DNA from: Actinomycetes bacterium
Lineage (GTDB): Bacteria; Planctomycetota; Phycisphaerae; JAACET01
Length of the DNA stretch: 64,000 nucleotides
Direction of reading: 5' to 3'
Assembly (NCBI GenBank): GCA_030614915.1
Contig: JAUXAG010000006.1
Span: 66,642 to 130,641 of the forward strand
In this document: positions 6,612 through 57,060 of the stretch, in pieces
How positions within the stretch are numbered: the first letter of the stretch is position 1
How the letters are laid out: each line of letters opens with the position of its first letter
Made by a program: the position numbers and the translations under genes
Notes under the pieces: generated by a model
What the model was told of the DNA's origin: nothing
The model's database searches: none
What the model saw: only the letters and a program-made list of their open reading frames with translations

Positions 6612-6629
6612 AGGATATTCGGGCTGGAT

Positions 6630-31449: not shown

Positions 31450-34400
31450 ATGGTCAAACAGCAAATTATATTAAAAAACTCGACCAACAAAATAGCACTG
31501 CTGATTCTAATGTGCTTTTTCCTCTCCGGCCTGACCGGCCTAGTATACGAAATACTATGGACAAGGCTCATTATTAAGATCATCGGCGGTGCACCATTTG
31601 CCGTCAGCATCGTTCTAACCGTTTTTATGGGTGGCCTGGGTTTGGGCGCTTATCTGGCCAGTCGGATCATAGACCGTATCACCGAACAAATGAAGCTGGT
31701 AAGAATATACGGCGCATTACAACTGGCAATAGCTGCTTATGCCCTGGTGATTCCGGTGCTGCTGACGGCTTCCAAGCCGCTTTACGCAATTCTTTATAAT
31801 CGGCTTTTCAGTCATTTTATGCTTTATAACCTTCTTACCTTTGTCGGCTGCTTCATCCTGTTGTGCATCCCTGTTATTTGTATGGGAGCCACGCTGCCGG
31901 TTTTGTGCCGGTTTTACGTTACCAAACTCTCTCATCTAGGTACACATGCCGGGAGGTTATACGGATTAAATACTATCGGTGCTGCTTTAGGTGCTCTGTT
32001 GTGCGGTTTTTGGCTAATCAACCTACTGGGCGTATGGGGAACGCTAATTCTTGCAGTGCTTATTAACGGCGTTATCGGGCTGGCCTGTATCGCTGCCAGC
32101 TATAGAGTGAAGGTGGCTGACGAACTAACAAAGGCGCCACAAGAAAGCGATGTTAAACGAATCCAACAGCCGAAATACCAGGGAGTTTTGTTCGGAGCAT
32201 TGATAATCTTTGCGGTGTCGGGTTTTTGCGCTATGTCCTATGAGGTAATATGGACCAAGCTGCTGGGATTGATGCTCGGGCCTACAACCTATTCTTTCAC
32301 TATTGTACTAGTCACTTTCATTGTAGGATTGGCCTTGGGTAGTATGTTTTTCGGCTGGCTTGCGGACAAAACCGGCAGGGCTATGTGGCTTTTAATATTG
32401 ACCCAGATTATGGCAAGCTTATTTGTACTGGGGATAAGTCAACTTCTGGGAAACAGCCAATTGTTCTTTGCTAAGCTGATCTTTGTCTTTAAAGACCAGT
32501 TCGCCCTGTTAAGCGTCGTTAAAACGGTTGCTTTGTTTGCCTTTATGATTTTGCCGACATTTTGTCTTGGTGCGACCTTCCCTTTGGTCAGCAAGATATA
32601 CACTCAATCTGTTTCGAGAGTGGGAAGATCCATTGGCCTTGCATATACCATCAATACGATTGGTGCGGTTTTAGGCTCATTTTGTGCTGGTTTTCTAATT
32701 ATACCGCTTTTTGGCAAAGAGACGGGATTAAGTCTTGTTATTGGCTTACAGCTTCTTACCTCACTGGTTATCGCTGTTGTCATTTTTGCTAAAAACAGAA
32801 AAGGCCTATTAAAGTGGACATCCCTGGCGGTGCCGGCCCTGGCTGGATTAGTTCTTTGCTTTTATCTTCCGGTGTGGAACCGTCCTCTGCTTGCCCAAGG
32901 CAAATATCATCGCTTCGACCCAAATAAAAGAGGCGTAGAAAGAGTCGGCTGGCTGGAATCCCTTTTGCACGGCCCGGAAATACTGACCAAGTTAGATTTC
33001 AGCGAACTGTTATATTATGGTGATGGTATTGGCGGTTTTACCACGGTACGGAGGAGTCAAGACGCGTTTGGCAATTTTGCATATTTCATGGCAAACAGCG
33101 GAAAAGGGGATGCTTCAACACGAGGAGATATGTGTACTCAAACACTGTTAGCACATTTGCCCATGCTCTTTCACCGGAATCCAAAAACGGTTATGGTATT
33201 GGGACTGGCAAGTGGAATAACCGCCGGCGAGGTATTGCATTATCCTATCGAGCAGCTCGATGTCATCGACATCAACCGTCAGGTTGTTGCGGCAAGTGAC
33301 TTCTTTGTGCCGTGGAATAATAACGTCCTTTCCAATCCCAAAACGAATCTTATTATTCAGGATGGACGGGCGCATCTTCAGCTGACCAGACAAAAATATG
33401 ATGTGATTATTTCCGAGCCTTCTAATCCATGGATGGCCGGCCTGGCTACTCTGTTTACACGCGATTTCTTTGCCCTTGCTGAAGACAGGCTCAACGAGGG
33501 TGGCATATTTGTTCAGTGGCTCCACGCTTACCAGATGGATTGGCCCACTTTTGCCCTTGTCGGCCGGACTTTTGCACAGGTCTTTCCAAACAGCCTTTTA
33601 GTCTCGACCCGCCCCCATGGACTTGATTTCCTCATGGTCGGATTTAAAGGCAAAAACCAGTTGATTCTGGACAATGCAGAGCAAAGGCTCTTCTACACTC
33701 AGCAGTCAAAAAATGTGGTTCTCTCCGACCCAAGATTGCTATACAGGCTCATTCAATCTGAAGATCTTCAAAATCTCTTCGGCCAAGGTCCTGTTAATAC
33801 AGACAATTGGCCTCGGCTTGAATTCAGTGCACCGAGACTGATGCACCAAATGGATTCGATGGTAGAAGAAAATATCGGGGCTAAACAATGGCTCAGTCTC
33901 AGAACGAAAAATATAATCGATCAGGTCGTAACAGACGTCGATGCCCAGATTGATTTTGCTGCTTATGCTCTTTCGCTTTATATTCCATTTCATGACATGG
34001 TTGACCTTTCAAAAGCCACGCCATCACAGAAAGAGCGTTTTTTTGGGCTTATGGAGTCGTATTGTGCCAATAACTGGGTGGAATCTGGCGTGATCAAAAA
34101 CGAAGAACTACATCGCAGGTGCCGCTCGATTCAAATAGAAACCATAGACGATAAGATTGCTGTTGTACCCAATAAGGCATCTTCGTACTTTCGCCTGGCC
34201 ACTAGCTACCAAGAAATGGGAATGGTGCAAAAAGGCATATCCAATTGGTCAAAGTTACTGCAAATCAGACCTAACCAAGCCGACGCCTACAACAACCGGG
34301 GTATCGCCTACTCGAGCAAAGGCGAGTATGACTTGGCCATACAGGATTTCGACCAGGCCATCGCGTTGAATCCCAAGGACGCCAAGACCTATAACAATCG

Positions 34401-34803
34401 GGGACTCACCTACTCGAGCAAAGGCGAGTATGACTTGGCCATACGGGATTTCGACCAGGCCATCGCGTTGCATCCCGCATATGTCACGGCCTATAACAAT
34501 CGGGGTATCGCCTACGGGAACAAAGGCGAAGATGACCAAGCCATCCGCGATTTCAACAAGACCATTGAGTTGGACCCGAGCTATACCGGGGCCTATTGCA
34601 ATCGGGGACTCGCCTACGCGAGCAAAGGCGAATATGACCAAGCCATCCGCGACTTCGAAAAAGCCGTCCAATTGGCCCAGGCCGCCGGAAACGAAAAATT
34701 GGCAAAGTATATCCAGAGCCAGCTGGAGTTGTATAAGGCCAGACGGCCCCATCGCGAACTGTTTACTCCTCAAGATCGTACCAGCCCGCAACCGAAAGAA
34801 TAG
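31450..34803 (+). CDS. Fused MFS-like membrane domain / spermidine synthase-like domain protein with C-terminal TPR repeats
   Basis: N-terminal 12 or more TM helices. Central spermidine-synthase fold motifs (VMVLGLASGITAGEV...IDINRQV...YDVIISEPSNPWMAG). C-terminal TPR units, with the last ~70 aa nearly identical to gene 26777-29017. Confidence 0.75.
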   Translation: MVKQQIILKNSTNKIALLILMCFFLSGLTGLVYEILWTRLIIKIIGGAPFAVSIVLTVFMGGLGLGAYLASRIIDRITEQMKLVRIYGALQLAIAAYALVIPVLLTASKPLYAILYNRLFSHFMLYNLLTFVGCFILLCIPVICMGATLPVLCRFYVTKLSHLGTHAGRLYGLNTIGAALGALLCGFWLINLLGVWGTLILAVLINGVIGLACIAASYRVKVADELTKAPQESDVKRIQQPKYQGVLFGALIIFAVSGFCAMSYEVIWTKLLGLMLGPTTYSFTIVLVTFIVGLALGSMFFGWLADKTGRAMWLLILTQIMASLFVLGISQLLGNSQLFFAKLIFVFKDQFALLSVVKTVALFAFMILPTFCLGATFPLVSKIYTQSVSRVGRSIGLAYTINTIGAVLGSFCAGFLIIPLFGKETGLSLVIGLQLLTSLVIAVVIFAKNRKGLLKWTSLAVPALAGLVLCFYLPVWNRPLLAQGKYHRFDPNKRGVERVGWLESLLHGPEILTKLDFSELLYYGDGIGGFTTVRRSQDAFGNFAYFMANSGKGDASTRGDMCTQTLLAHLPMLFHRNPKTVMVLGLASGITAGEVLHYPIEQLDVIDINRQVVAASDFFVPWNNNVLSNPKTNLIIQDGRAHLQLTRQKYDVIISEPSNPWMAGLATLFTRDFFALAEDRLNEGGIFVQWLHAYQMDWPTFALVGRTFAQVFPNSLLVSTRPHGLDFLMVGFKGKNQLILDNAEQRLFYTQQSKNVVLSDPRLLYRLIQSEDLQNLFGQGPVNTDNWPRLEFSAPRLMHQMDSMVEENIGAKQWLSLRTKNIIDQVVTDVDAQIDFAAYALSLYIPFHDMVDLSKATPSQKERFFGLMESYCANNWVESGVIKNEELHRRCRSIQIETIDDKIAVVPNKASSYFRLATSYQEMGMVQKGISNWSKLLQIRPNQADAYNNRGIAYSSKGEYDLAIQDFDQAIALNPKDAKTYNNRGLTYSSKGEYDLAIRDFDQAIALHPAYVTAYNNRGIAYGNKGEDDQAIRDFNKTIELDPSYTGAYCNRGLAYASKGEYDQAIRDFEKAVQLAQAAGNEKLAKYIQSQLELYKARRPHRELFTPQDRTSPQPKE

Positions 34804-40143: not shown

Positions 40144-42804
40144 ATGAGCCAAGCAGATCCATCCACCAAAAACCTCACCCCGGCTATGCGGCAGTACCAC
40201 AGCTTCAAAGCCAAGTACCCCGATGCCGTCCTCTTCTTCCGCATGGGTGATTTCTACGAGATGTTCTACGACGACGCCGTCCTGGCCAGTCGGGTGCTCG
40301 GCCTGGCCCTGACCAGCCGAAGCAAGGGCGACAATGCCGTCCCCCTGGCCGGCGTGCCTTACCACGCCGCCGAAAGCTATCTCAACCGCCTCATCAAAGC
40401 GGGCTATCGCGTGGCCATCTGCGACCAGGTCGAGGACCCCAAGCTCGCCAAGGGCGTCGTCAAGCGCGACGTCGTCCGACTGGTAACCGCTGGCACCCTC
40501 ACCGACGAAGCCCTGCTATCCGAGCGCGAGGAAAACTTCCTCGCTGCCGTCTGCGAAGACTCCCAAGGCCTGGCGCTCGCCTGGGTCGAACTCAGCACCG
40601 GGGCCTTTAGCGTCATGCAAGTCGACCGACCCCGCTTGCTCGACGAGCTCGTCCGCCTGAGGTCCGCCGAGTGCCTCTTCGACCAGAGTTGGCTCAGCGA
40701 AAACCGCACCCTCGCCCAGGAGCTCCGCGAGCTCACCGGTGCGGTCATCACCGAACGGCCCGACTGGTCCTTCGCTCCTTACAATGCCCAACAGGTCCTT
40801 CAGAAACACTTCGCCACCACCAGCCTCGCTGGCTTCGGCTTCGAACACCCCGGCCCGGAAGTATGCGCCGCTGGGGCCATCATCGACTACCTAAACGAAA
40901 CCCAGAAGACCGCCCTGGCCCACATCAACAAGCTCACCCGTTTTGAGCGCAGCAACTTCGTGCAGATCGACCAGAACACCCTCCGCGCCCTCGAAATCGA
41001 GCGCACTCTGCGCGACGGCAAACTCCAAGGCTCGCTCCTGGCCTGCCTCCAGGAAACCTACACCCCCATGGGCTCCAGAATGCTCCGCCGTTGGCTCTGC
41101 TTCCCACTGGCTGAGATGGACATGATCCTCGACCGCCAGCAGGCCCTCGCCCAGCTCGTCAACGACTCTGACACTCTCCGCCAAATGCGATCCCTGCTCA
41201 AAAAAATGACCGCCGACTTGGAGCGTATCACCGCCCGCCTGAGCACCGGAAGGTGCTCCCCCCGCGACCTGCTCGGCTTAGCCTCCGCCCTAAAAATCCT
41301 GCCCCAACTCAAGCAGCTCATGTCCGCCTGCGACGGCCTGTACTGGCAAAAGCTGTTCGAGAATTGCGACCCCCTCACCGATGTTACCGAGCTGATCGAA
41401 CGCGGCATCAATCCCAACGCCCCCAACGTCCTCCGCGACGGCGGGGTAATCAAAGATGGCTACAACACCGAACTCGACCAGCTTCGCTCACTCGGCAAGA
41501 ATCAAAAACAATGGTTGGCCCAGTTCCAGAAGACCCAGGCCCAAACCACCGGAATCCCTTCCCTGCGTGTCGGCTACAACAAGGTCTTCGGCTTTTACAT
41601 CGAGGTAACCAACCTCCATCACGACAAGGTGCCCAGCCACTACATCCGCAAGCAGACCCTCAAGAACGCTGAGCGTTACATCACCGAAGAGCTCAAACAA
41701 TATGAGACCCAGGTCCTCGAAGCTACCGAGAAGAGCAAGGACCTCGAGGCCCGCCTCTTTGAGGACATCCGAACCCAACTGGCCGGGCAGGTCGCCCGTC
41801 TTCAGCAGACCGCCGGCGTAATCGCCCAGACCGACACCCTCTGCTGCTTGGCCCAGTTGGCCGTCGCCCGCGGATACTGTCGCCCCGAAATCCTCGACTC
41901 CACCGAGCTTGAGATCATCGACGGCAAGCACCCCGTCTTGGCTATGACCCTGGCTGAGCGATTCGTCCCCAATGACGTTACCCTCAACGAGAGCGACCGC
42001 CGCCTGGCCATCATCACCGGCCCAAACATGTCCGGCAAAAGCACATACATCCGCCAGACCGCTCTGCTGGCGATCATGGCCCAGATCGGCAGCTACATCC
42101 CCGCTTCACGAGCCCGCATCGGCGTAGTCGACCGCATCTACACCCGCGTCGGAGCCACCGACGAGTTAGCCCGCGGGCAGAGCACCTTCATGGTGGAGAT
42201 GACCGAGACCGCCAACATCCTCAACAACGCTACCGACCGCTCCCTCGTAATCCTCGACGAGGTCGGCCGAGGCACCAGCACCTACGACGGCCTATCGCTC
42301 GCCTGGGCTGTCACCGAGCACATCTGTAGCCACATCCGCTGCCGCACCCTCTTTGCCACCCACTATCACCAGCTCACCGAGTTAGCCGAGCTTTTGCCGA
42401 ATGTCATTAATTTGAATGTACTTGTCCGCGAATGGGCCGACGAGATCGTCTTTCTCCATCGCATCGTCCCCGGCGGAACCGACAAGAGTTACGGCATACA
42501 CGTCGCCCGCTTAGCCGGCATCCCCCGGGCCGTCATCCACCGCGCCCGCGAATTGTTACAGCGCCTAGAAACGGCTGCCTGTGGTGAGCCCCGTCGAACC
42601 GCGCCTGATGCCATCCCCGCCCCACATACAAGTAGTAAAAAGAAAGCTGCCAATGGCAGCCAGATGATGCTCTTCTCCCAACCCACCAACCACTTAGCGG
42701 AAGCCATAAATTCCCTCGACCTCGACAACCTCAGCCCCACCGATGCCCTCAAAGCTCTAAAAGAATTGCAGGAAAAAGCCAAAAGAGAACTAAAACAAAT
42801 CTAG
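40144..42804 (+). CDS. mutS: DNA mismatch repair protein MutS
   Basis: N-terminal TPAMRQY...GDFYE mismatch-binding motif, Walker A GPNMSGKST, C-terminal HTH. Confidence 0.95.
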   Translation: MSQADPSTKNLTPAMRQYHSFKAKYPDAVLFFRMGDFYEMFYDDAVLASRVLGLALTSRSKGDNAVPLAGVPYHAAESYLNRLIKAGYRVAICDQVEDPKLAKGVVKRDVVRLVTAGTLTDEALLSEREENFLAAVCEDSQGLALAWVELSTGAFSVMQVDRPRLLDELVRLRSAECLFDQSWLSENRTLAQELRELTGAVITERPDWSFAPYNAQQVLQKHFATTSLAGFGFEHPGPEVCAAGAIIDYLNETQKTALAHINKLTRFERSNFVQIDQNTLRALEIERTLRDGKLQGSLLACLQETYTPMGSRMLRRWLCFPLAEMDMILDRQQALAQLVNDSDTLRQMRSLLKKMTADLERITARLSTGRCSPRDLLGLASALKILPQLKQLMSACDGLYWQKLFENCDPLTDVTELIERGINPNAPNVLRDGGVIKDGYNTELDQLRSLGKNQKQWLAQFQKTQAQTTGIPSLRVGYNKVFGFYIEVTNLHHDKVPSHYIRKQTLKNAERYITEELKQYETQVLEATEKSKDLEARLFEDIRTQLAGQVARLQQTAGVIAQTDTLCCLAQLAVARGYCRPEILDSTELEIIDGKHPVLAMTLAERFVPNDVTLNESDRRLAIITGPNMSGKSTYIRQTALLAIMAQIGSYIPASRARIGVVDRIYTRVGATDELARGQSTFMVEMTETANILNNATDRSLVILDEVGRGTSTYDGLSLAWAVTEHICSHIRCRTLFATHYHQLTELAELLPNVINLNVLVREWADEIVFLHRIVPGGTDKSYGIHVARLAGIPRAVIHRARELLQRLETAACGEPRRTAPDAIPAPHTSSKKKAANGSQMMLFSQPTNHLAEAINSLDLDNLSPTDALKALKELQEKAKRELKQI

Positions 42805-42820
42805 AGTCGCAATCATTTGA

Positions 42821-44914
42821 TCATCGCGTAGGGTCCGCTGGATTTTGGGTTTCGGGGCCGGATTTCGCGTAGGATTTGAATCTCGCATTTACCGCCGTAA
42901 ACAGCATGCATGCTTTTTTTAGGGTAGTCTCAGGAACGCTCTTTGGGTCTTTGCCCCACTCTTCAATAAGTCGCAGTACAGCCCAAGCTTTCTGATCGGT
43001 TCCGAATGTCCCAAAGCCTTTACGCTTGAATACTTTTTCCATGGCAGCTACGTTAGTTTCTTCCTGCTTTTCCTCGTCGTTCAATTTAAAGTTGTAGCCA
43101 CAAGCCCCCACTGCAGCGGCGTAGCTGTCTCTGGCTACTAGGTCTTCGATAGTAGCCTTTTTCAAACCTACGGCTTGTCCCAGCATCAGAATACGAGAGT
43201 TATCACCAAATAAGTCCCGTTCGAATCGCTTAGCAGCCTGTATGCCTGTGCTATCGCTGTCGAGCAGTACGAGCATCTGACGACCGCCTACACCACTAGC
43301 CCCAAACATTATTGAGGCAAGGGGCATCATTCTGCTAATACCACCGGACGGAATGATCACGGTATCTTCCTGAAGTGTCGGCCCTTTTCCAAGAGCAGCG
43401 AGGCACCCCGTCAAAGCCTTCGCGATCCAGTAGTCGGTGATGCCCTCTACAATCAGTGATCGTTTACCCAGGAAAAGAGTTTGGGCCATCGAGTAACCGA
43501 TGGCGGCCTGCAGAGGAAAAAGGGTATCGCGGTCACCGGCGAGCCGTGTATTGCTGGAAACGACTGCCTTTTCGAGCCGATCTCCCTCAAGGTAGGTGGT
43601 CCTTACGCGCTCAAGATGATTTCCATCAACCAGGAATGGCAGGTGAGTAGTATATATCAATTGGTTGGTACCTGAGATGCGCTCAAAAAGGCCAATAAGG
43701 CTACTTTGCATTGTTGGATGTAGATGCAAACCGGGTTCATCGAGAAGTAATATGGCGCCTTTATGCGCCTGTTTCGATTCGACGAGGAAAACAAGATAGA
43801 AAGAGAAAAACCACTGAAATCCGTGGCTTCGCTCTTCGAATGGAATAGGGAACTCATTGTATTCATCTGAGACCCTCAGTACTAGGTCGTCTCCGTCCGC
43901 GTCAAAAGACAGTTTGTGTCGTTTTTCTGTCCACCATTTGATCCAGTCTCCAGTAAGGCCGAACGACGCGGAGTCCAATAGAGCCCGTCGCTTATCCTTT
44001 CTACGTTGCCTGGCTTCTTCTTCTTCGCCATCCTGTGGTTTGCCAAGCGTGAGAATCTCCTCCGGATTAAGATTACTCCACTCGAATAGGGCGGCCTGTG
44101 TGCGAGTCTTTACGTCAGGGGATTTGACACGCGTTAGATAGAGCGGCAAGTTCAACCTCGTTTCCAGCTGCCCATAGTCGTCGAAATATATGAATGTTGG
44201 GAGGTTTTGAAGAACCCAACTTCTTGCTTTTTGGGCTGGATCACCCTCTTTGGCTTGCCCAATAAGTGTCGAAAGTTTTCCAAGCTCCTTGCTGGCTAGT
44301 TGTTTTCGCGACTCGTCTCCAGATATCCAATTTGAAACAGTCGATTGAAACGATGTCAGTTGAGTGACGGTACCCTTGTCCCAAAGCGGAAGGTCTTCGT
44401 TGATAGCGTTTTCCGCATCGGACTTTGCCTTACTCACTGTACCATCGTCCGACCCATTCGACATGACAGCTTGGGCAACTTCCTGAATTCTCTTCTTAGC
44501 ATGGACCGACGATTTCTGGAATTCCTTTTCGGTCTTTTCATCGAAATTGATATGTGTTTCGGTTTCTTCCTCACCTTTGTAGTAGCTTGTGAAGATGATT
44601 TCTGTCGGCTTGACGTTAAACTCAGAGGGAAACTGGCCGGACAGCTCTTCTGCTTCAGCATCCGTAAGCTCGAACTTGAGAGTAACCACCTCCTGTTTTT
44701 CGAAGCGCTCCTTTGCATAACGTTCCCGGGGATAGTCCAAAAGCTTATCGAACTTGGCATTTGCGACATTCTTTGTCTTCCACAGCGCCCGAAGGATGGC
44801 TGTCTTGCCGCTTTCATTTTTGCCAACGAGAGCTGTTACATGCTCATCCACGGGAATCAGTCCGGTGTCGTCAATTACTTTATAGTTTTTGATCTGAAAG
44901 TGTGTAAGCTTCAT
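42821..44914 (-). CDS. OLD-family ATP-dependent endonuclease (ABC-type ATPase + Toprim), stand-alone class-1 type
   Basis: Walker A GKNESGKT. OLD-type Walker B/H-loop ILLLDEPGLHLHP. Toprim Glu (SLIVEGITDYW) and DxD (VLLDSDSTG). GC (~48%) is clearly lower than the flanks. Confidence 0.8.
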   Translation of the reverse strand: MKLTHFQIKNYKVIDDTGLIPVDEHVTALVGKNESGKTAILRALWKTKNVANAKFDKLLDYPRERYAKERFEKQEVVTLKFELTDAEAEELSGQFPSEFNVKPTEIIFTSYYKGEEETETHINFDEKTEKEFQKSSVHAKKRIQEVAQAVMSNGSDDGTVSKAKSDAENAINEDLPLWDKGTVTQLTSFQSTVSNWISGDESRKQLASKELGKLSTLIGQAKEGDPAQKARSWVLQNLPTFIYFDDYGQLETRLNLPLYLTRVKSPDVKTRTQAALFEWSNLNPEEILTLGKPQDGEEEEARQRRKDKRRALLDSASFGLTGDWIKWWTEKRHKLSFDADGDDLVLRVSDEYNEFPIPFEERSHGFQWFFSFYLVFLVESKQAHKGAILLLDEPGLHLHPTMQSSLIGLFERISGTNQLIYTTHLPFLVDGNHLERVRTTYLEGDRLEKAVVSSNTRLAGDRDTLFPLQAAIGYSMAQTLFLGKRSLIVEGITDYWIAKALTGCLAALGKGPTLQEDTVIIPSGGISRMMPLASIMFGASGVGGRQMLVLLDSDSTGIQAAKRFERDLFGDNSRILMLGQAVGLKKATIEDLVARDSYAAAVGACGYNFKLNDEEKQEETNVAAMEKVFKRKGFGTFGTDQKAWAVLRLIEEWGKDPKSVPETTLKKACMLFTAVNARFKSYAKSGPETQNPADPTR

Positions 44915-44998
44915 CGTTTTCTCCTGGGAATCGTTGGCAAACTCCTATATTAAAGCCCACACGAATTGGCTAGATAGATTATACCGAATCTGTCCATT

Positions 44999-45031
44999 AT
45001 TGACAAGCCCCCTTCTCGGCCCTATATTCGC
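44999..45031 (+). promoter_or_regulatory. Promoter-like motif ATTGACAAGCC-N-CCCTATATTCG (a second copy lies upstream of the repressor gene, at 47806-47838)
   Basis: TTGACA-N17-TATATT. The 11-nt flanking words are identical between the two copies. No plus-strand ORF lies downstream of this copy. It reads into the AT-rich tandem repeat. Confidence 0.4.
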
Positions 45032-45203
45032 ACCGGATTCGGAGCTTTCTCTGCTTTGTGCCTCTGTGCCTTCCTACTCTGCGAAGTAGCTCGCTACGTA
45101 GCACGAGTTGTTCATTTGTGCCTTTCCTCTACTTCGTGCCCTTTGTGTTGAATGAATCAGCGTAATCTGCGAAATCAGCGTCAAAAAATCTTTCTTTGCG
45201 TTT

Positions 45204-45330
45204 CTATATTATCAGTGCAATCTGTGTTCATCTGTGGCTAATTATCTTTTCTGTATTTCTTACTATCAGTGTAATCTGTGAAATCTGTGGCTAATTATCT
45301 TCTCTGTATTTCTTACTATCAATTAGCAAC
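45204..45330. repeat. AT-rich tandem direct repeat (~53-bp unit, ~2.5 copies) containing reiterated AATCTGTG words
   Basis: atctgtggctaattatctt(t/c)tctgtatttcttactatca appears twice (45230-45282 and 45283-45330), with a partial copy upstream. Six copies of aatctg(t/c)g. Confidence 0.7.
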
Positions 45331-45348
45331 GCCCAAGGCGAGCTTAGA

Positions 45349-46092
45349 TCATATTATTTGCTGAGGCGGTTGTTGGTATGGGTTTGCGTATTGGGGTCCG
45401 GCTTGAGCTGCCGCTTGGGCTGGGGGAGCACCAATGCCAAACTGGGCCAATTCGGGCGTCTGGGCTACCAGGTGCCGATATACCAACGCGTTAGCTACCA
45501 TCACTGTAGGATAGGCCGCAAACACACCCACACCCAGGCAAAGCAACCCCAAAAGAATAATCAAAGCACACAGAAGACTAAAGACAAACAGTTTCCATTT
45601 GACCCCCATGGTGGTCCGCCCGCTGGCCTTGATCGCCTGAACGGGCCCCAGGCCTTTATCAATGACAAAATACTGACAAAGGCCGTATTTGATCGACCAG
45701 ATAATCCCTGGAACAATGAATAGCAAAAGCCCACCCCACACAATGAGCATCAAAAGGATCTGTGCCCCCACATACCGCCAGAAGCAGCCTTCATAGTCAA
45801 ATAGGGTACTGAAGCGTGGCTTTCGGCCGTCACAAAAACTAAGGGCTATCTTGATAAAGCCTATGCCGATGATAATGCTGATAACCATCCCGATGATATT
45901 GAGCACAAAAATCAACAAACCAGCTAGCAGCTCGGGGGGCTTTACGCTTAGTATTATCTGCTCGATAATATCCGGTATGGCGCTGACTAATCCAGCCACG
46001 AAAGCCAGCCCTACAAAGAACCACAGGTTCACCTTCATTACTTGCCAGCCAAAGCCCAGCACATCCCCGATGATAAAACGCTTGCCGTACAT
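45349..46092 (-). CDS. Integral membrane protein (DUF975-like, uncertain)
   Basis: Five or more hydrophobic helices. Low GC like the adjacent OLD gene. Start chosen at MYGKRF. Track ORF extends to 46161. Confidence 0.5.
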   Translation of the reverse strand: MYGKRFIIGDVLGFGWQVMKVNLWFFVGLAFVAGLVSAIPDIIEQIILSVKPPELLAGLLIFVLNIIGMVISIIIGIGFIKIALSFCDGRKPRFSTLFDYEGCFWRYVGAQILLMLIVWGGLLLFIVPGIIWSIKYGLCQYFVIDKGLGPVQAIKASGRTTMGVKWKLFVFSLLCALIILLGLLCLGVGVFAAYPTVMVANALVYRHLVAQTPELAQFGIGAPPAQAAAQAGPQYANPYQQPPQQII

Positions 46093-46252
46093 AGATTCCC
46101 CTTTCAAGAAGGTTGTTTTCCAAATTGTAACTGCATGTCTGAGCTTTAGCAAGTCCACCAAAACCGGCTTTACAAGAAGACTACTCTACCAGTATTATTG
46201 GGTTTGGGCAAACTTTGATTGACTTTTCTACAAGAGACAAGGAAAGGCAACC

Positions 46253-46603
46253 ATGTCTGAAGACAAGCCGACTATTACCTTCGACGATTTTGCCAAGCTC
46301 GACCTTCGCGTAGCTAAGATAATCGAGGCTGAGAATCACCCCAATGCAAATAAGCTCATTTGCCTGAAGATCGACCTGGGCAGCGAAGAAAGACAGATCA
46401 TCGCCGGCATCCGCGGCCACTATGAGCCGGCTGAACTGATCGGAAAACAAATCGTCGTCGTCGCTAACCTCGCCCCCCGCACAATGCGAGGCCTCGAATC
46501 GCAAGGCATGCTCTTGGCCGCCCACGCCCAAAATGAATCCGCCAGCTCACTTGTCCTGATAACCCCCGAAAAACCCACCACCCCCGGCGCCGAAGTCTCC
46601 TGA
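46253..46603 (+). CDS. tRNA-binding domain protein (CsaA / MetRS C-terminal EMAP-like)
   Basis: LDLRVAKIIEAENHPNANKL...KIDLG...QIIAGI...YEPAELIGKQIVVVANL OB-fold motif string. Confidence 0.8.
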   Translation: MSEDKPTITFDDFAKLDLRVAKIIEAENHPNANKLICLKIDLGSEERQIIAGIRGHYEPAELIGKQIVVVANLAPRTMRGLESQGMLLAAHAQNESASSLVLITPEKPTTPGAEVS

Positions 46604-46623
46604 GCGGGGCCAGCTAGTGTTTT

Positions 46624-47685
46624 CTATTTAGCTTCGTCCTTAAACAATCCAAAGATAGGCTCGGGCGCCCGTTCCAGCTCAGCCAGGGCCCGTCCCCGAG
46701 TGTTGGTCAGCCGGGCCGATTCTTTCTCCTTGGTATTGGCCGACTCTGCCGGGGCAACTTCCACCTCCAGCACCACACCCCGGTCGATCCGGTCAGCCAG
46801 AAACCGCAAATCCTCCTCCAGAGCCAGCTTCAAATCACCCGCTCGCCCCTTTGCCCCCCCCGGCAAATACTCATCCAGAATCGCCTGGGCCAAATCCCCC
46901 AGCTCTTTGTCAACCAGTTCCCCCTCGTGCTCCACGATGGCCTCGATCCGCTCAGCCGGCACCTTCTGCTTTACCAGGTCCGCCCGCAGCTTCTTGATCT
47001 GCATCAGGTTCTTATACACCCCCGCAATCCGTTCGACAGCCAGGGCCAGGGCCCCCGCCACCTCCGCCGAGACCTCCAGGAACAATTGAAAACCCGTCGG
47101 GCCGAGCGAGCTGATCTTGAGGCTGGCAACCTCCTGCCCCACGATCTTCTCAAACGTCTTGAGGGCATCGTCGAATTCATGGATCTCCGTACCCAGCCCC
47201 TCCAGGTTCGAGCCCACCAACTCCGGCGGAATACTAATCCCCACGCACGCCTGCCCCGCTGCCAGGCAATCGGGCTTGATATCAAAATCGTGCAGCTTTT
47301 TGTGCATGGCCTTGACCGACTTGTAAAAGCCCCCCAGCTTCTTGCCCAGCCGGGCCATTTGCTTCTGGGCATCCGCCGGGCTCATCGTGTTTGCTTCGAG
47401 GATCCCCGACACCTGCCCCCAAAGCCCTCGCCCAGTATAGCCCAGGGCCCCCAGTCGCTCGAAAATCCCCCGGGTGCTGGGCGTAGCCCTGTTCGTCGCC
47501 GACGATTCCAGCAGCTTCTGGAGCTCCCCACACGCCTGCTGGAAAGCCTTGGTATTCTGCTCGCTCGGCGATTGCACCGAGCTATCCAGGGCCCCCTGAA
47601 GCTCTCCCAGTTTTTCCACCACTCCTCCGCAATCGAATTCCTCCCCGATGCAGTGCAGAGCAGCGTGAAGTCTAGCCGTGTGCAT
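46624..47685 (-). CDS. Hypothetical protein (helical/coiled-coil), divergent from the repressor gene
   Basis: 353-aa ORF. No recognisable motifs. Confidence 0.5.
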   Translation of the reverse strand: MHTARLHAALHCIGEEFDCGGVVEKLGELQGALDSSVQSPSEQNTKAFQQACGELQKLLESSATNRATPSTRGIFERLGALGYTGRGLWGQVSGILEANTMSPADAQKQMARLGKKLGGFYKSVKAMHKKLHDFDIKPDCLAAGQACVGISIPPELVGSNLEGLGTEIHEFDDALKTFEKIVGQEVASLKISSLGPTGFQLFLEVSAEVAGALALAVERIAGVYKNLMQIKKLRADLVKQKVPAERIEAIVEHEGELVDKELGDLAQAILDEYLPGGAKGRAGDLKLALEEDLRFLADRIDRGVVLEVEVAPAESANTKEKESARLTNTRGRALAELERAPEPIFGLFKDEAK

Positions 47686-50920: not shown

Positions 50921-51361
50921 TTAATATATTAGTGCTGCTGTGGCTTTGCCGCGCTTTTGCTTCTTGGAGTCGTCGATAATTAGTTCGATCAGCTCGCCTT
51001 TGCCAGGTGCCAGAGCAGCCAGCATTTCGGAGGCTTTGATTTGCAAAACGATCTGCGGCTGCCATCGGCCGACATTGAGGAAGTTGTTGAAGCGGCTGCG
51101 GTGTGGTTGGCTTCGGCTGTCCAGATGTCGGTAGAGGGCCGCTATGTTCTTTCGCCCCCAGGAAATAGTCATCAACAGGACCAAGGTGCGGAAGTACCGG
51201 AAGTGGTCCCAGTGGAACTGATCTTTCAAAGAATCGAAAAAAGACTCCAGTTTTTTGGGGAAACGGACGATCTTGAACATGAGGGCAATCTCCTGTCGAT
51301 AAGTTGTTGTGATAAAGCTCTTATCGATGAGATTGCCTTTTTTTGTTGATAAATTGTTCAT
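50921..51361 (-). mobile_element. IS4/IS701-like transposase N-terminal fragment (truncated, no DDE domain)
   Basis: 146-aa ORF, low GC, lacks the catalytic region. Ends ~60 bp from tRNA-Gly. The family call is pattern recognition only. Confidence 0.35.
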
Positions 51362-51422
51362 GTCCGTCTAAAATCTTCTCAAAAAGTCAGTCAAGTTGAG
51401 TATATAACAATGACAAATAGTT

Positions 51423-51494
<72 letters not shown>

Positions 51495-51510
51495 TTTCGT
51501 AATAGCTTTT

Positions 51511-51538
51511 GGAGCCTAGGGTTACAACCCTAGGCTCC
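51511..51538 (+). terminator. Perfect 11-bp hairpin immediately 3' of tRNA-Gly; tandem TTTTGGGACAGTT x2 follows at 51563-51587
   Basis: ggagcctaggg ttacaa ccctaggctcc. Candidate tRNA terminator and/or att-site/arm-type integrase binding repeats. Confidence 0.45.
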
Positions 51539-51896
51539 TGGCCGTTTAGGCTTACCTCTGATTTTGGGACAGTTTTTGGGACAGTTCTACGCCGAAACTT
51601 ACCTGCGTGGTATTGACTTCACGCCAATCCAACACTAGCAGCAATCAGTTAAATCCCCCACAGACGTTATTGTCAGAGCAATGTCAATCCGCAAGCAGGT
51701 GAGTAGCATGCGCAATTAGAAACTGCCTCATTGGTAGGCATGTTCCCTCCCGATAGGCACTGTCGGCCTTTGATTATCGCTAAGCGGTGATTATCCAGGA
51801 GGCCGGGCCAGATCTCCACTGGGAAGATTGTAGTACATAGGGGTTTTTGCTGAGAGGCCTGGTCTTTCTATGGCTTGCAGCTCTTGTTCATCTGCT

Positions 51897-52994
51897 TTAG
51901 CCAGCTTTGTGCAACCTAGTTTTAGCCCGGGACAACCGAGCGGGTTGCGGTCGAGAAATACCTGCCACCTTGTCATACAGTTCTTCCGGAACCTGTAGAT
52001 AGTGCCGGCTTGAAACACGTATATCATGACCCAGCCAAGCACTGACTACGTATTGAGGATATTTCTGGGCCCAATCAGTTTCACGGTTACGACGGAGTAC
52101 TTGACACCAAGACGCCCATCTTTGTAAACCTGCCCGTTTGCAGATTACGCCGAAATCTCGCCAGAGATTGCTCTGTCCAAGGGATCTTCTCGGAATAACA
52201 AGGGGCTTGCTCTTATCCCTTTTCGAGAATGCTTCGAGAAGCAGATTGAACAAATCCGGCTCGATAGGAACTATTCTCCGTCTTGCGGTTTTTTCGGCGA
52301 CAATCTCTAGTCGCCGATGCTCCCAATCTACAGCTGACCAAGGCAAGTTTAGAGCTTCGCCCTGCCGCAGGCCAGCTAATCGACATAGAGACAGCAATGC
52401 ACGCCAAGGGATTGACGGGCACGCATCAAGCAGCTTTTCGAAGTCTTTTGGGCTGACATATCTCCAATTCTTATCCGGCTCTGGGGCGATTCCTGAGAGC
52501 CGATCAAAGGGATTGAAGAGAACCAGATCATCTCGCAGTGCGTGATTGAAGATGGTCTTAGCATTACGAATGTGCTGACAGACGGTACCTTCTGCCAGTC
52601 CCTCATGTTTTGATGCTTTTCCTTTAGCCAGGCTCGATCGCCAGTCGGCTGCAGCTGCGCGGGTAATTCTATCGATACGAATGCTCTCGCCAAAGTACTC
52701 CAGCAAATAGCTGGCAGTCCGTTCGTGTAACTCTAAGGTGCCCTTCTTTATGTCGGTCCGAGAATCAAGATATCGCTGCAGATATTGCCCGAACGGCAGA
52801 GCCTTGCCAAGACTGTATCTACCAGGATCAACGTGTAGTTTGGCCATGAATCTCTCAGCTAGTACCCTTGCTTGGCGTTTTCGGATCCTCTTGGTCGAGC
52901 CAAGGCTTTTAGTTCGCCTCTTACCAAATTGGTCGTAGTATTTGACCTTCCAGTATCCTGAATCTTCATATAGACGAATTGGGTTTGTATTCAT
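51897..52994 (-). CDS. Tyrosine-type site-specific integrase
   Basis: Box I-like GLRQGEALNL and C-terminal H..R..Y region (LGHDIRVSSRHY). Start at MNTNPIRLY with a GGGAG RBS. Track ORF extends to 53111. Confidence 0.75.
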   Translation of the reverse strand: MNTNPIRLYEDSGYWKVKYYDQFGKRRTKSLGSTKRIRKRQARVLAERFMAKLHVDPGRYSLGKALPFGQYLQRYLDSRTDIKKGTLELHERTASYLLEYFGESIRIDRITRAAAADWRSSLAKGKASKHEGLAEGTVCQHIRNAKTIFNHALRDDLVLFNPFDRLSGIAPEPDKNWRYVSPKDFEKLLDACPSIPWRALLSLCRLAGLRQGEALNLPWSAVDWEHRRLEIVAEKTARRRIVPIEPDLFNLLLEAFSKRDKSKPLVIPRRSLGQSNLWRDFGVICKRAGLQRWASWCQVLRRNRETDWAQKYPQYVVSAWLGHDIRVSSRHYLQVPEELYDKVAGISRPQPARLSRAKTRLHKAG

Positions 52995-53226
52995 TATTAT
53001 ACTCCCTATATTTCCTGGAGGCCTCCTTCTGACCTTGACAGCCCGCACATTCTGTTGGATACAACGGACATCATTAGTTGTTAGTCTAAATGGCTTGCCT
53101 GAAGAGCGCAAGAGGCAAAATCGGATATTTTAAAATTTCTTCGACTGTTCGGAAACCTCGGTTTTTGACGGTAAGCCGGCGTTTTGCCTGCTAATTACTG
53201 GGCTGAATTCCAAAGTGCTATCCAAA

Positions 53227-53505
53227 TTATCGCGGGTTGGTTTCTGTCAGCTCCTCCAAAAGCCGCTCCAACTCAATGCGGCGGAAGCGAATGCTCTTAC
53301 CAACTTGGGTGGCCCGCAGGAGTCCCTTCCTACGATAATAGCGGAGGGTATTCGCCGAGTCTTTGGTTTTGATCCCATCGAGTCGCAAATATCGAATAGC
53401 CTCCTCTTCCGTTAGAAGTTCGGGGCAAGGCTGCCATGGGTCTCCCGGAAGGATGGAGATATGACCAGTTATTGTTGTATTCTTGTGGATTTTCATACCA
53501 ACCAC
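53227..53505 (-). CDS. Excisionase / AlpA-family HTH DNA-binding protein
   Basis: EEAIRYLRL...NTLRYYRRKGLL...GKSIRFRRIELERLL. Typical MerR-like excisionase HTH. Confidence 0.6.
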   Translation of the reverse strand: MVGMKIHKNTTITGHISILPGDPWQPCPELLTEEEAIRYLRLDGIKTKDSANTLRYYRRKGLLRATQVGKSIRFRRIELERLLEELTETNPR

Positions 53506-53715
53506 ATCTCAGCATGCGGATATACTTCCCATTCCATGTCCTCTCACCTGCATGAACTGAAAAGGCACCTGTCACACACGAAGCAGCCGGAATCCCGACG
53601 CATGGGCTGGCTGCACTCGAAGTACAAGCAATCAATGCCCACATTACGGTGAGCTATATAAGAACATGAATTCTTGATCACAATCTTTGGCCTCTACTGA
53701 GACGTCCCAGTCTTA

Positions 53716-54282
53716 TCAAGCCGTTGGAAGGACTATATCCTTCTGATACTGGTATTTGCCTTTGCGGTCGGCGTACGAAGTAGCGCAGGGCATATCACTT
53801 TCAAAGAACAGTACTTGAGCCAGACCTTCGCCCGCGTAAATCTTCGCCGGCAAAGGAGTAGTATTGGAGATCTCCAGCACAGCCTTGCCTTCCCAGCCGG
53901 GCTCAAACGGCGTTACATTTACAATGATTCCACACCTGGCATAAGTAGACTTGCCGACACAAATGGTCATTACATTTCTGGGAATGCGGAACAACTCAAG
54001 GCTCAGAGCTAAAACAAAACTGTTAGGCGGTATCAGGCAGACCTTACCATCGAACTCTACTAGCCCTCTGGGGTCGAAATTCTTGGGATCAACGACCGCC
54101 CCGTAAACATTGGTAAAGATGCGGAACTGACTGGATACTCGCAGATCATACCCAAAAGACGAGTTTCCAAACGAGATGACCGGTCGGCCATCAATGCTGC
54201 GGACCTGGTTTTGAACAAAGGGCTCAATCATACCGTATTCCCTGGCCATCTTTGCAATCCATGTGTCGGGGCGGATACTCAT
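53716..54282 (-). CDS. dcd: dCTP deaminase
   Basis: [11 protein letters not shown]..., [22 protein letters not shown] motifs (dUTPase-fold trimer). Start at MSIRPD just after the nrdG stop. Confidence 0.8.
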
Positions 54283-54295
54283 AGTTTTAGTCTCC

Positions 54296-54931
54296 TTAAT
54301 GTTCTTTCGCTCGAGTTCGAAGCGCCGGATCAAGGGCATGCTGCGGACAGAATTTCTGCAGGCGATGTGCAGATCCGGAAGGAATGAGTTTGCCTATTGA
54401 ATCGATGTCCCTCGGCGACAATAGAGCCTTTACCACGGTTGTCCGGAATTCATGAATAACCTTACTCCTGGCAATCAATTCGATGCTTTCCAGAATTTGA
54501 CTAGTGGGCGTACGTACGCCTGTGAGACGATCATAAATTCGGAGAGGCGCTTTGACATCCATGGCAATGAAATCTACCAACCCATCTTGCAGAACTGCAC
54601 GCAGTACATGTGGCTGACTGCCATTGGTATCCAGCTTGACCAAAAAACCCTCGGACTTTATGCGAGCAAGAAACTCAGGCAGGTCTGCCTGAATAGTCGG
54701 TTCCCCTCCGGTGACTACTACCCCATCGAGTCGTTTGTTACGTGATTGGAGGATCTCAAAAAACTCTTCTTCGGGTATCAAGCAGAATTCAAAGACATCT
54801 GCGGATATTAATGATCCGTTATGACAATAAGGGCAGCGGAAATTGCAGCCCTGAGTGAAGGCCACAGCTGCTGTCCGACCGGGAAAATCAGAGAGACTGA
54901 ACTTATTTAAGCCGCCGATTCTCATGATCAA
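54296..54931 (-). CDS. nrdG: Anaerobic ribonucleotide reductase activating protein (radical SAM)
   Basis: [10 protein letters not shown] radical-SAM cluster motif. 4-nt overlap with the nrdD end. Confidence 0.85.
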
Positions 54932-57060
54932 GCCTCTATTTTGTAGTTCTTCCTAAGGGCAAACTCCGCCTGCTTGCCTTTGTTCCATTGGCTTACAGGC
55001 CTCAGGTATCCGACCACGCGGGAGTAAACCTCGGTCTGGGCGTTACACTTGGGGCACTGAGGCTGCTGACCGGATATGTAGCCGTGCGCAGGACATACAG
55101 AGAACACCGGTGTTATGGTAAAATATGGAAGACGGTATTTGTGGCAAACCTCTCTGATAAAGGCTTTTACGGCCTGAGGGTCTGGCGTGGTCTCGCCGAG
55201 ATAGACATGTAATACCGTACCGCCGGTGTAGAGAGTCTGTAGCTCATCCTGGAGGTCTAAGACCTCAAAGATGTCGCCCGTATAGTTGACCGGTAATTGA
55301 GTGGAATTGGTATAGAAGGGCTCTCCTGTCTGATTGGCACAAATAATGTCGGGGTAGTGTTCCTTGTCCAGCTTGGCCAGCCGATAGCTGGTACTTTCTG
55401 CCGGGGTGGCTTCCAGGTTGTAGAAGTTGCCGGTCTGTTCTTGGAAGCGGATAAGAATTTGGCGCATAAAATCCAAGACTCTGATAGCAAAAGAGCGGCC
55501 TTGTGAGGTGCCGATATCGCAGCCTAGTAGGTTCAGGCCGGCTTCATTCATACCCACGAGGCCTATGGTGGAGAAGTGGTTGTACCAGTAACAGCCGTAA
55601 TGCTGTTTGATCTGTCGCAAATAGAATTTGGTATAGGGAAAGAGGTCCTGCTCGGTGAGCCGTTCGAGGACCTTGCGCTTCGTTTCCAGGCTTGTTCTGG
55701 CAATCTCCATCAACTGGTTGAGCCTCTGGAGAAAGTCGGCCTCATTAACGGCCAGATACCCCAGGCGGGGCATATTAATGGTTACTACACCGATCGAGCC
55801 GGTCAAGGGATTGGCCCCGAAAAGTCCACCCCCGCGTTTTCTTAGAGAACTCAGGTCCAAGCGGAGCCGACAGCACATCGAGCGGACATCGTCAGGAGAC
55901 ATGCCGGAATTGACAAAGTTGGCAAAATAAGGCAGGCCGTACTTGGCGGTGATTTCCCAGAGCTGTTCCAATTCTGGAGCATTCCAATCAAAATCTTCTG
56001 TGATGCTATAGGTGGGAATGGGGAAAGTGAAAGGACGACCCTTGGCGTCGCCCTCGGCTAAGACTTCCAGAAAAGCCCGATTAAAAAGATTCATCTCCGG
56101 CTGGAAGTCACCGTAAGTCTCCCTTTGTGGCTGGCCGCCTATGATGACCGCCTGGTCCGCCAGCGATTTGGGAGGCTGCAGATCCAGGCTAATATTGGCA
56201 AAGGGGGCCTGGCCTCCGACCCGGGTAGGCACGTTGCTATTGAAGATGAATTCCTGAAGAGCCTGTTTTATTTCTCTAAAGATCAGGCCGTCATAACGGA
56301 TAAATGGAGCGAGCAAGGTGTCAACATTAGAAAACGCCTGGGCTCCGGCCGCTTCGCCCTGGAGGGTGAAGATGAAGTTGACCATCTGACCCAGCACAGA
56401 GCGAAAATGCCTGGCCGGTCTGCTTTCAACTTTGCCTGGAGCACCCCGGAATCCCCACAAAAGCAGTCCGTACAGATACCATCCCACGCAATAGGGCGCA
56501 AGAAGCCCGAGGTCGTGAAGGTGTATTGCTCCAGACTCATATGCCTCGCGGACCTCCGGGCTGTAGATTTTCTCGAGCCAGTAATTCTTGCTGATGTCGC
56601 CGGATACGTAGTGGTTTAGTCCCGGCAGAGAGTAACCCATATTGCTGTTTTCACGCACCTTCCAATCACGGCGGTCCAGATAACTGTCTACCCGGTCAAG
56701 ATCAATCTTCTGGGCCATCTTTCTGATTCGCGTGTGCTGATCGCGATACCGGATGTAGGCCTTGCCGGTCTTTCTGAAAAGCGAGGCCAATAAAACGTCT
56801 TCCACCACATCCTGTATTTGTTCCACGGTAGGCGGTTTTTGTGGCAGAATTGTCTCGGCCTGGTTCAACACCTCAGTTGTGAGTGTTCGGGCAGTGTCTT
56901 GGCCAAACTCACCGGTGGCCTGGCCTGCCCGCAGTATGGCCGATTCGATTTTCCTGGCATCAAAAGGAACTAAGCGACCGTCACGTTTCTGAATTTGGTC
57001 AAATGGACAGTCGCCAAGATCGCCAAGGTCTCTTTGGGATTGTTCCGGCAAGCCTATCAT
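54928..57060 (-). CDS. nrdD: Anaerobic ribonucleoside-triphosphate reductase (class III)
   Basis: 710 aa. C-terminal zinc site CPAHGY...CPKCN and glycyl-radical motif RVVGYLRP. Confidence 0.85.
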   Translation of the reverse strand: MIGLPEQSQRDLGDLGDCPFDQIQKRDGRLVPFDARKIESAILRAGQATGEFGQDTARTLTTEVLNQAETILPQKPPTVEQIQDVVEDVLLASLFRKTGKAYIRYRDQHTRIRKMAQKIDLDRVDSYLDRRDWKVRENSNMGYSLPGLNHYVSGDISKNYWLEKIYSPEVREAYESGAIHLHDLGLLAPYCVGWYLYGLLLWGFRGAPGKVESRPARHFRSVLGQMVNFIFTLQGEAAGAQAFSNVDTLLAPFIRYDGLIFREIKQALQEFIFNSNVPTRVGGQAPFANISLDLQPPKSLADQAVIIGGQPQRETYGDFQPEMNLFNRAFLEVLAEGDAKGRPFTFPIPTYSITEDFDWNAPELEQLWEITAKYGLPYFANFVNSGMSPDDVRSMCCRLRLDLSSLRKRGGGLFGANPLTGSIGVVTINMPRLGYLAVNEADFLQRLNQLMEIARTSLETKRKVLERLTEQDLFPYTKFYLRQIKQHYGCYWYNHFSTIGLVGMNEAGLNLLGCDIGTSQGRSFAIRVLDFMRQILIRFQEQTGNFYNLEATPAESTSYRLAKLDKEHYPDIICANQTGEPFYTNSTQLPVNYTGDIFEVLDLQDELQTLYTGGTVLHVYLGETTPDPQAVKAFIREVCHKYRLPYFTITPVFSVCPAHGYISGQQPQCPKCNAQTEVYSRVVGYLRPVSQWNKGKQAEFALRKNYKIEA

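Follow-up and report, generated by a model that had tools for sequence, protein, structure and literature searches.

Within a 64,000-nt stretch of a planctomycete genome (contig JAUXAG010000006.1 of assembly GCA_030614915.1, positions 66,642-130,641; hereafter the window, to whose own numbering all coordinates refer), the segment 42783-45320 beside mutS is, in our judgement, quite probably a horizontally acquired single-gene cassette. It would encode a divergent class 1 protein of the OLD family, in which an ATPase sensor is joined to a Toprim effector and whose role is probably antiphage. The protein belongs to the OLD family because it combines an ABC-type ATPase (Walker A, Walker B and H-loop) with a Toprim domain carrying the Glu and DxD motifs, and it is a new, divergent and uncharacterised class 1 member of this known family. 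A first-pass annotation, made from the letters of the window alone, had proposed a class 1 OLD antiphage gene at this place. The class assignment is borne out below; the part in defence we infer from the family and the genomic context, and both activities, ATPase and nuclease, are predicted from conserved motifs.

ATPase and Toprim motifs in a single chain

The reading frame of the OLD gene is uninterrupted and full length. The signature that the first-pass annotation had read in the 697-residue protein, namely GKNESGKT (Walker A), LLLDEPGLHLHP (Walker B and D-loop His), the Toprim Glu and DxD, is intact; the Glu is E489 in LIVEG, the DxD is D551-S-D553, and the H-loop reads THLPF. Homologues found in a protein collection search are ~681 aa long and 49-64% identical to the query, the top one reaching 64% and some of 57-59% identity coming from Alphaproteobacteria. 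Public records name them mostly 'AAA family ATPase' or 'hypothetical protein', and an exact-protein look-up of the OLD protein itself returned no contig on record. In an alignment of 50 members of this family (A1), the residues that are invariant or at least 90% conserved comprise G30, K36, T37, S362-x-G364-x-Q366, L388-LLDEPG-H398 and T422-H423-L-P in the ATPase region, and E489, D493, D551-S-D553, T587-x-E589-D590 and R594 in the Toprim domain. A few members (P0117, P0105, P0113) carry degenerate Toprim motifs, with VNSN or LDSN for LDSD and IIGE for IVEG, and may be nuclease-dead variants.

Profile, sequence and structure comparisons agree on the family. Pfam assigns residues 1-430 to AAA_15 (E=1.5e-28) and AAA_21. 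The top PADLOC rows are labelled AriA and represent generic AAA_15/AAA_21 profiles; they are followed by Old (1.1e-19), AbiLi, GajA, PtuA and AriAB. The best relative by sequence in the PDB is 6P74, the class 1 OLD of Thermus scotoductus (Ts OLD; 7e-10), and the alignment spans the Walker B region to the first Toprim strand, with LIVEGITDY of the query facing LLVEGYGDR, so that E489 and D493 align to E377 and D381 of Ts OLD. The same structure is the top Foldseek match (6.9e-12) of our AlphaFold2 (AF2) model, whose mean predicted local distance difference test (pLDDT) score is 82.8.

The ATPase region is interrupted by a helical insertion of ~200 aa, the second half of which is very highly conserved (IYFDDYGQLETR, RTQxALFEW and LDSASFxLTGDWIxWW). 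By analogy to the dimerisation domain of Ts OLD (PMC7049728), we presume that it serves as a dimerisation or sensor module.

The C-terminal part is harder to recognise by profiles. In isolation it matches Pfam PF20469 (OLD-like_TOPRIM) marginally (E=0.09), and its only PADLOC match is one GajA model (E=0.0018). We settled its identity as Toprim through short relatives and profile-profile alignment. With the C-terminal 258 aa as query, a search of 1.84 billion representatives gave 882 clusters at 50% identity; most of the proteins are 630-720 aa long and carry the domain C-terminally. PF20469 is matched by all ten short relatives of the domain, in three cases above the Pfam cutoff, and DUF4435 by none. 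Alignment by hhalign of A1 with P2 Old (probability 85%, E=6e-6, 240 columns) and with Escherichia coli YbjD (E about 1e-3) places VEG and DxD in register in both cases. In the AF2 model of residues 440-690 (pLDDT 82.6) a canonical Toprim core runs beta1-alpha-beta2-alpha-beta3-alpha-beta4, lacks a helical insert and leads into a helical region. Only two fold matches of this model reach high probability, the Toprim of retron Eco2 (probability 0.99, TM-score 0.52-0.55) and Ts OLD (probability 0.87).

In Ts OLD, metal A is bound by E377/D431/D433 and metal B by D381/S478/E480, with R487 as the basic residue (PMC7049728). The query residues E489/D551/D553, D493/T587/E589 and R594, the last lying 5 residues past E589, match these ligands in order and spacing, and they correspond to the residues that were mutated in Ts OLD (PMC7049728). 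Thus E489, D551 and D553 are putative metal A ligands, and the conserved motifs suggest D493, T587 and E589 as putative metal B ligands.

Foreign composition and a variable site at the 3' end of mutS

The G+C content (GC) of the OLD gene is 0.488 and its GC at third codon positions (GC3) is 0.507, compared with 0.607 and 0.787 for mutS and 0.608 and 0.751 for the 353-aa gene beyond csaA; the window means over 49 open reading frames (ORFs) are 0.553 (standard deviation 0.040) and 0.628 (0.091), respectively. The compositional deviation noticed in the first pass is therefore real, though the dip is not unique, as the window has three further low-GC patches, at 3.4-4.8 kb, 31.4-34.8 kb and 51-57 kb.

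To define the insertion we relied on relatives. Species-representative genomes gave no empty-site test, because the 80 closest MutS loci (≤55% identity, metagenome-assembled genomes of Planctomycetota) are too distant and share no synteny, the genes flanking mutS in the window being absent near theirs. Closer relatives were reached in a metagenome protein collection via the membrane protein encoded upstream of the OLD gene and via MutS; the MutS relatives used are 76-85% identical. The comparison of the site rests on six informative contigs.

Three relatives are empty. In L192, the order is the 353-aa gene, csaA and the membrane gene, with the mutS stop 22 nt further on; in L197, mutS, 24 nt, the membrane gene and csaA follow each other; and in L202, scored from a 73-nt tail, the 3' end of the membrane gene lies immediately after the mutS stop. 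Two other relatives carry different cargo. L191 has the same backbone with 1,486 bp of low-GC DNA between the membrane gene and mutS, encoding a 179-aa protein and a 242-aa DUF4145 protein (GC 0.41-0.46). On both sides of this cargo stands a direct repeat of 40 nt from the mutS 3' end (2355-2394 and 3881-3920), which is the signature of an insertion into the mutS 3' end, and in its left copy the MutS tail is still encoded in ancestral form (...KGN*). L196 holds at 5592-6802 a 191-aa DUF6680 protein with 46-aa and 139-aa ORFs (GC 0.37-0.41), and lacks the DUF975-like membrane gene. The MutS C-terminal tail differs in each relative (...EKANGN* in L192, ...EKAKENWRPT* in L191), and that of the window is supplied by the insert, which further contains the OLD gene, the promoter region and a repeat array.

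Contigs L198-L201, from three further MutS relatives, end at or just after mutS and are left out of the occupancy counts. Several metagenomic contigs of relatives (L198-L202) end inside mutS or ~70-230 nt past it, a pattern that would fit a polymorphic or repeat-rich downstream site in those populations.

Backbone genes have relatives at 76-86% identity, and those of the membrane protein reach 83%, 82%, 79% and lower, versus ≤64% for OLD. Taken together, the foreign GC and GC3, the three empty-site relatives, the two with other cargo and the greater distance of the OLD homologues strongly support horizontal acquisition of the insert, as had been suspected in the first pass. Its extent has to be redrawn, however. 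The islet had been set at 42821-46161, an insertion between mutS and csaA; the OLD part of it holds, whereas the relatives place the insertion between mutS and the membrane gene, and the foreign segment is the one given in Table 1.

The 3' end of mutS is thus a small integration hotspot in this Planctomycetota lineage. PADLOC and Pfam gave no defence annotation for the cargos of L191 and L196, so that "defence hotspot" cannot be claimed for them. In enteric bacteria a polymorphic region is found downstream of mutS (mutS-rpoS), and this region, like defence hotspots between core genes more broadly, can be compared with the present site. They are alike in having a variable slot beside a conserved mutS with differing acquired cargo in related strains. 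They differ in that the present site lies in another phylum, has a DUF975-like gene and csaA as its partner flank, and forms a slot of 1.2-2.5 kb with a promoter module common to all occupied versions.

Table 1. Coordinates of the insert, the OLD protein regions and the adjoining features in the window
Feature	Position	Strand	Remarks
mutS	40144-42804	+	all five MutS Pfam domains
Last seven codons of mutS, RELKQI*	42783-42804	+	supplied by the insert
Inserted segment, 2,538 bp	42783-45320		GC 0.474 vs 0.573 and 0.593 in the flanks; homology to relatives L191/L192 ends at 42782 and resumes at 45321
OLD-family gene, 697 aa	42821-44914	-	intact ORF; AAA_15, PADLOC Old and 6P74 matches
C-terminal extension, ~18 aa, KSYAKSGPETQNPADPTR	42824-42877 (42824-42865 beyond the helical region)	-	residues ~680-697; unstructured, pLDDT below 50
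C-terminal helical region, aa 595-683	42866-43132	-	from models
Toprim core, aa ~484-594	43133-43465	-	E489, D493 after beta1; D551-x-D553 at the end of beta3; T587-x-E589; R594
ATPase region, aa 1-440	43595-44914	-	Walker A G30-T37; signature-like S362-x-G-x-Q366; Walker B D391/E392; H398; H-loop H423
Helical insertion in ATPase, ~200 aa, aa ~125-330	43925-44542	-	secondary structure of the model and conservation
AGGAG Shine-Dalgarno sequence	44921-44925	-	6 nt before the OLD ATG
Promoter module	44956-45038	-	93% identical to L191 2420-2493, 78% to L196 6843-6925
Sigma-70-type promoter-like site, TTGTCA-17-TATAAT, 11/12	44978-45006	-	64-92 nt upstream of the OLD start
53-nt tandem array, 3.1 copies	45156-45321		GC 0.33; Tandem Repeats Finder
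Spacer, 434 nt	between the OLD gene and the membrane-protein ORF		contains the promoter-like site and the repeat array
Membrane-protein ORF	45349-46161	-	DUF975 match of 32.1 bits, just under the Pfam cutoff of 34.8
csaA-like tRNA-binding-domain gene	46253-46603	+

The OLD gene and mutS are convergent, with 16 nt (42805-42820) between their stop codons, and no helicase was found near the OLD gene, both as described in the first pass. The likely start of the membrane gene is the ATG at 46092 (247 aa) rather than the TTG at 46161.

Other parts of the window also drew our attention. A low-GC outlier at 31450-34803 (+) encodes a 1,117-aa fusion of major facilitator superfamily transporter, spermidine-synthase-like and tetratricopeptide repeat parts (GC 0.471, GC3 0.51) and has no PADLOC match. 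A low-GC island at 50921-57060 (0.48-0.52) lies beside tRNA-Gly(ccc) (51423-51494) and carries part of a DDE_5 transposase (50921-51361), a tyrosine integrase (51897-53111), a gene resembling dCTP deaminase (53716-54339), a radical-SAM activase similar to NrdG (54296-54931) and NrdD (54928-57060). This island looks like an integrated element carrying an anaerobic ribonucleotide reductase; the weak pVip matches of its activase are generic radical-SAM matches. The tyrosine integrase beside the tRNA-Gly is ~7 kb from the insert, and nothing ties it to the insert. A tubulin-like protein of 948 aa (Tubulin_2 domain, E=7.9e-07) is encoded at 59929-62775 (-).

Class assignment and competing explanations

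OLD proteins are classified by gene context: class 1 is a single gene, class 2 occurs with gajB, class 3 in retrons, class 4 is the split, sometimes fused, AriA/AriB, and class 5 is the archaeal Cran1 type (PMC12392090, PMC10568477, PMC12796447). The insert holds one gene only. We compared 102 homologue loci, made up of 5 exact look-ups, 80 metagenomic and 25 viral contigs, minus a few in which no OLD ORF was called. The largest neighbour family occurs in 6 of the 102, and the DUF975-like gene is a singleton. Since the insert is a single gene and no neighbour is conserved across these loci, the window OLD falls by definition into class 1 (stand-alone). At the protein level, class 1 is set apart by the absence of Toprim Insert 3 and by a catalytic basic residue that lies near S/T-x-E and not in a helical domain of its own (PMC7049728, PMC12796447), and the modelled Toprim without a helical insert, with R594 close to T-x-E, fits this description.

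The other classes fare less well. The window protein shares the ATPase-Toprim architecture of the class 2 nuclease GajA of Gabija, whose chains align over the longest stretch of the model (~750 columns) and which supplies the single PADLOC match of the isolated C-terminus; however, no GajB/UvrD-like helicase is present beside the gene or recurs in the 102 loci, and the model lacks the alpha3-beta4 Toprim insert. The first-pass exclusion of Gabija and class 2 thus stands. With class 3 there is a likeness in that the C-terminal half superposes best on the Eco2 Toprim, and the difference from retrons Eco2 and Eco8 (the latter with an OLD) is that the window OLD has neither reverse transcriptase (RT) nor non-coding RNA, and that an ABC ATPase is the N-terminal partner domain. 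The insert and its surroundings contain no RT ORF, Rfam gave no match over 42000-47000, and we found no convincing structured RNA or small ORF in the 434-nt spacer, whose fold is no better than that of shuffled sequences (z=0.51); class 3 is rejected on these grounds.

The characterised class 1 proteins (Ts OLD 6P74, P2 Old of phage P2, Vc OLD of Vibrio cholerae and YbjD/OldB of E. coli) resemble the window OLD in being single genes with an N-terminal ABC ATPase interrupted by a helical insertion, in having a Toprim without the class 2 helical insert and with what is putatively the same set of acidic metal ligands and a basic residue shortly after T/S-x-E, and in occupying variable genomic neighbourhoods that include mobile elements. 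The window OLD is only ~17-22% identical to them and ~110-170 aa longer, owing to a larger, highly conserved ATPase insertion and a longer C-terminal helical region. Its Toprim is only weakly detected by Pfam and PADLOC, its Walker B aspartate is D391 where Ts OLD has a glutamate, and its host is a planctomycete.

The closest OLD homologues occupy defence-island settings. One lies between an integrase and a type I restriction-modification operon with Qat genes nearby; another adjoins a PLD-SNF2 helicase and a methylase resembling DISARM or BREX. Homologues are also present on 25 viral contigs.

We considered whether the protein could instead be a fused PARIS-like system of class 4, with AriA and AriB in one chain, in which the ATPase would sense a trigger such as a phage anti-restriction protein, and the Toprim, once released or activated, would cleave specific tRNAs. 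The AAA_15-type ABC ATPase, the Toprim effector and a total length similar to the fused AriAB model are shared with PARIS. We nevertheless regard this as unlikely and rejected class 4 membership: the two best 'AriA' models have the same lengths as the generic AAA_15/AAA_21 profiles and match the same residues as Pfam does, the Old model scores above AriAB (68.7 vs 51.5 bits), and the best match by both PDB sequence search and Foldseek is the class 1 Ts OLD. In addition, the Toprim is of the OLD type, seen through the transitive PF20469 matches of its ten relatives, and neither they nor the query C-terminus match the DUF4435 of AriB. An RNA substrate would not by itself imply PARIS either, because P2 OLD of class 1 also cleaves tRNA (PMC12445682). 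A housekeeping ATPase-nuclease for genome maintenance linked to mutS, whether RecF/Rad50/SbcC-like or Cran1-like, might be suspected from the direct adjacency to mutS, from the ATPase head, which resembles those of Rad50, SMC and RecF, and from Cran1, which illustrates that OLD-family proteins can have cellular roles. This seems very improbable to us, as mutS and the membrane gene abut in the closest relatives lacking the OLD gene, the composition of the OLD gene is foreign, it is convergent with mutS rather than co-transcribed, and the homologues, found in defence islands and viral contigs, are associated with mutS in 0 of the 102 loci.

The first-pass annotation had also suggested that the DUF975-like membrane protein was a co-acquired partner, which would make a two-gene system of a membrane effector and an OLD sensor-nuclease. 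The genes are indeed adjacent, on the same strand and lower in GC than their neighbourhood. However, the membrane gene is part of the backbone: it stands beside csaA in L191, L192 and L197 whether or not the site holds cargo (homologues up to 83% identical), and it is missing from L196, where cargo is present. Its GC is ~0.50, and relatives have comparably low values (0.505, 0.519, 0.467), as befits a hydrophobic protein. It is separated from the OLD gene by the spacer with a promoter of its own, has no PADLOC match, and has no DUF975-like counterpart beside OLD in any of the 102 homologue loci. Since the gene is resident even in empty-site relatives and its low GC is intrinsic, the idea is refuted as a conserved system, and we give it hardly any probability. 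Finally, the gene could be what is left of an old insertion, decaying or silent and without current function. The 18-aa C-terminal extension of the window copy, the lack of mobility genes or att repeats at the insert and the degenerate Toprim motifs of some family members would be in line with such decay, but the full-length frame, the intact catalytic residues, the near-consensus promoter and the AGGAG ribosome-binding site make it improbable.

Several observations weigh against our preferred reading of an acquired class 1 OLD with a defence role. Identity to characterised OLD proteins is low (~22% to P2 Old), the Pfam score for the Toprim of the query itself is the marginal one given above, and the mapping of T587, E589 and R594 is suggested by motif spacing and conservation. 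The 18-aa extension is unusual, being missing in the 49 aligned homologues, and may be derived from the mutS junction. We found no recombinase for the window insert and no att-like direct or inverted repeats around it. The other cargos at the site have no PADLOC match, and no other recognised defence gene flanks OLD in the window. Furthermore, the phenotypes of YbjD do not need its Toprim (PMC13261556), and Cran1, an OLD-family member, is a cell-cycle protein and not a defence protein (PMC12796447).

Expression signals, proposed action and significance

The OLD gene is preceded by a promoter module of ~80 nt with a conserved upstream box, CCGAATATAGGGCCGA. The module lies directly upstream of the cargo in L191 and upstream of the cargo in L196, so that it is found in 3/3 occupied and 0/3 empty sites; L191 has a further, diverged copy upstream of its membrane gene (1470-1528). 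The 53-nt repeat of the tandem array likewise has intergenic copies around csaA in L191 (697-842 and 1244-1381) and L192 (751-780 and 904-972), and no further copy of either element was found in the 64-kb window. Both belong to the dispersed intergenic repeats of this planctomycete lineage; the expression signals of the cassette are thus made of lineage-specific dispersed repeats. The module could be either a mobile promoter element or a recombination substrate. No terminator-like hairpin was found between the OLD and mutS stops, the nearest on the OLD strand being inside the mutS coding region (42645-42661), and OLD transcription may therefore read antisense into mutS.

Characterised members of the family act in different ways. 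Compromised RecBCD activates P2 OLD, which cleaves tRNAs in their anticodon arm (PMC12445682, PMC13261556, 2026 preprint). Vc OLD nicks DNA and thereby blocks the replication of phage, for which both of its active sites are required (PMC12392090), and in vitro Ts OLD acts as a non-specific DNase (PMC7049728). We propose that the OLD gene would be expressed from the near-consensus sigma-70-type promoter in the module that also precedes other cargos, and, by analogy to these three proteins, that the ABC-type ATPase interrupted by the ~200-aa helical module would serve as sensor or regulator. The protein probably oligomerises through this insertion, as P2 OLD, Vc OLD and Ts OLD suggest, and would stay inactive until a phage-dependent cue is sensed. 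The C-terminal two-metal Toprim nuclease would be the effector, with R594 stabilising the transition state. Upon activation it would cut nucleic acid, and either nicking of DNA would block phage replication or cutting of tRNA would stop translation, in both cases protecting the population. The closer fold match of the model to the Eco2 Toprim, which cuts tRNA (PMC12916289), is a weak hint at an RNA substrate.

A broader reading, which we put forward tentatively and consider rather unlikely, is that this planctomycete lineage has, from the mutS stop to the DUF975-like gene, a dedicated site for the exchange and expression of cassettes. There a mobile promoter module specific to the lineage would recruit small interchangeable cargos, which have no recombinase of their own, and drive their expression. 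The cargos may be OLD here, the pair of the 179-aa and DUF4145 proteins in L191 and the DUF6680 protein in L196, with the module sometimes accompanied by the 53-nt array. If this were true, cargo transcription would run antisense into mutS and expression of a defence gene could modulate mismatch repair; the OLD clade could also be a tRNase with a new trigger.

Our findings on the class 1 OLD cassette do not overturn the current understanding of the family. Class 1 is the least understood OLD class, with phenotypes only for P2 Old, Vc OLD and YbjD, whose substrates and triggers differ. The present clade is large, with at least 120 clusters at 49-64% identity and its C-terminal domain in ~880 clusters at 50% identity. 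Being conserved, poorly labelled and barely seen by Pfam and PADLOC in its Toprim part, it is a reasonable candidate for testing, and its annotation can be improved. The most interesting by-product is the hotspot at the mutS 3' end with its common promoter module. The locus constitutes a natural experiment, in which empty, OLD-filled and otherwise-filled versions of one site are available, and it documents such a hotspot in Planctomycetota, a phylum with little-explored defence and mobile-element biology.

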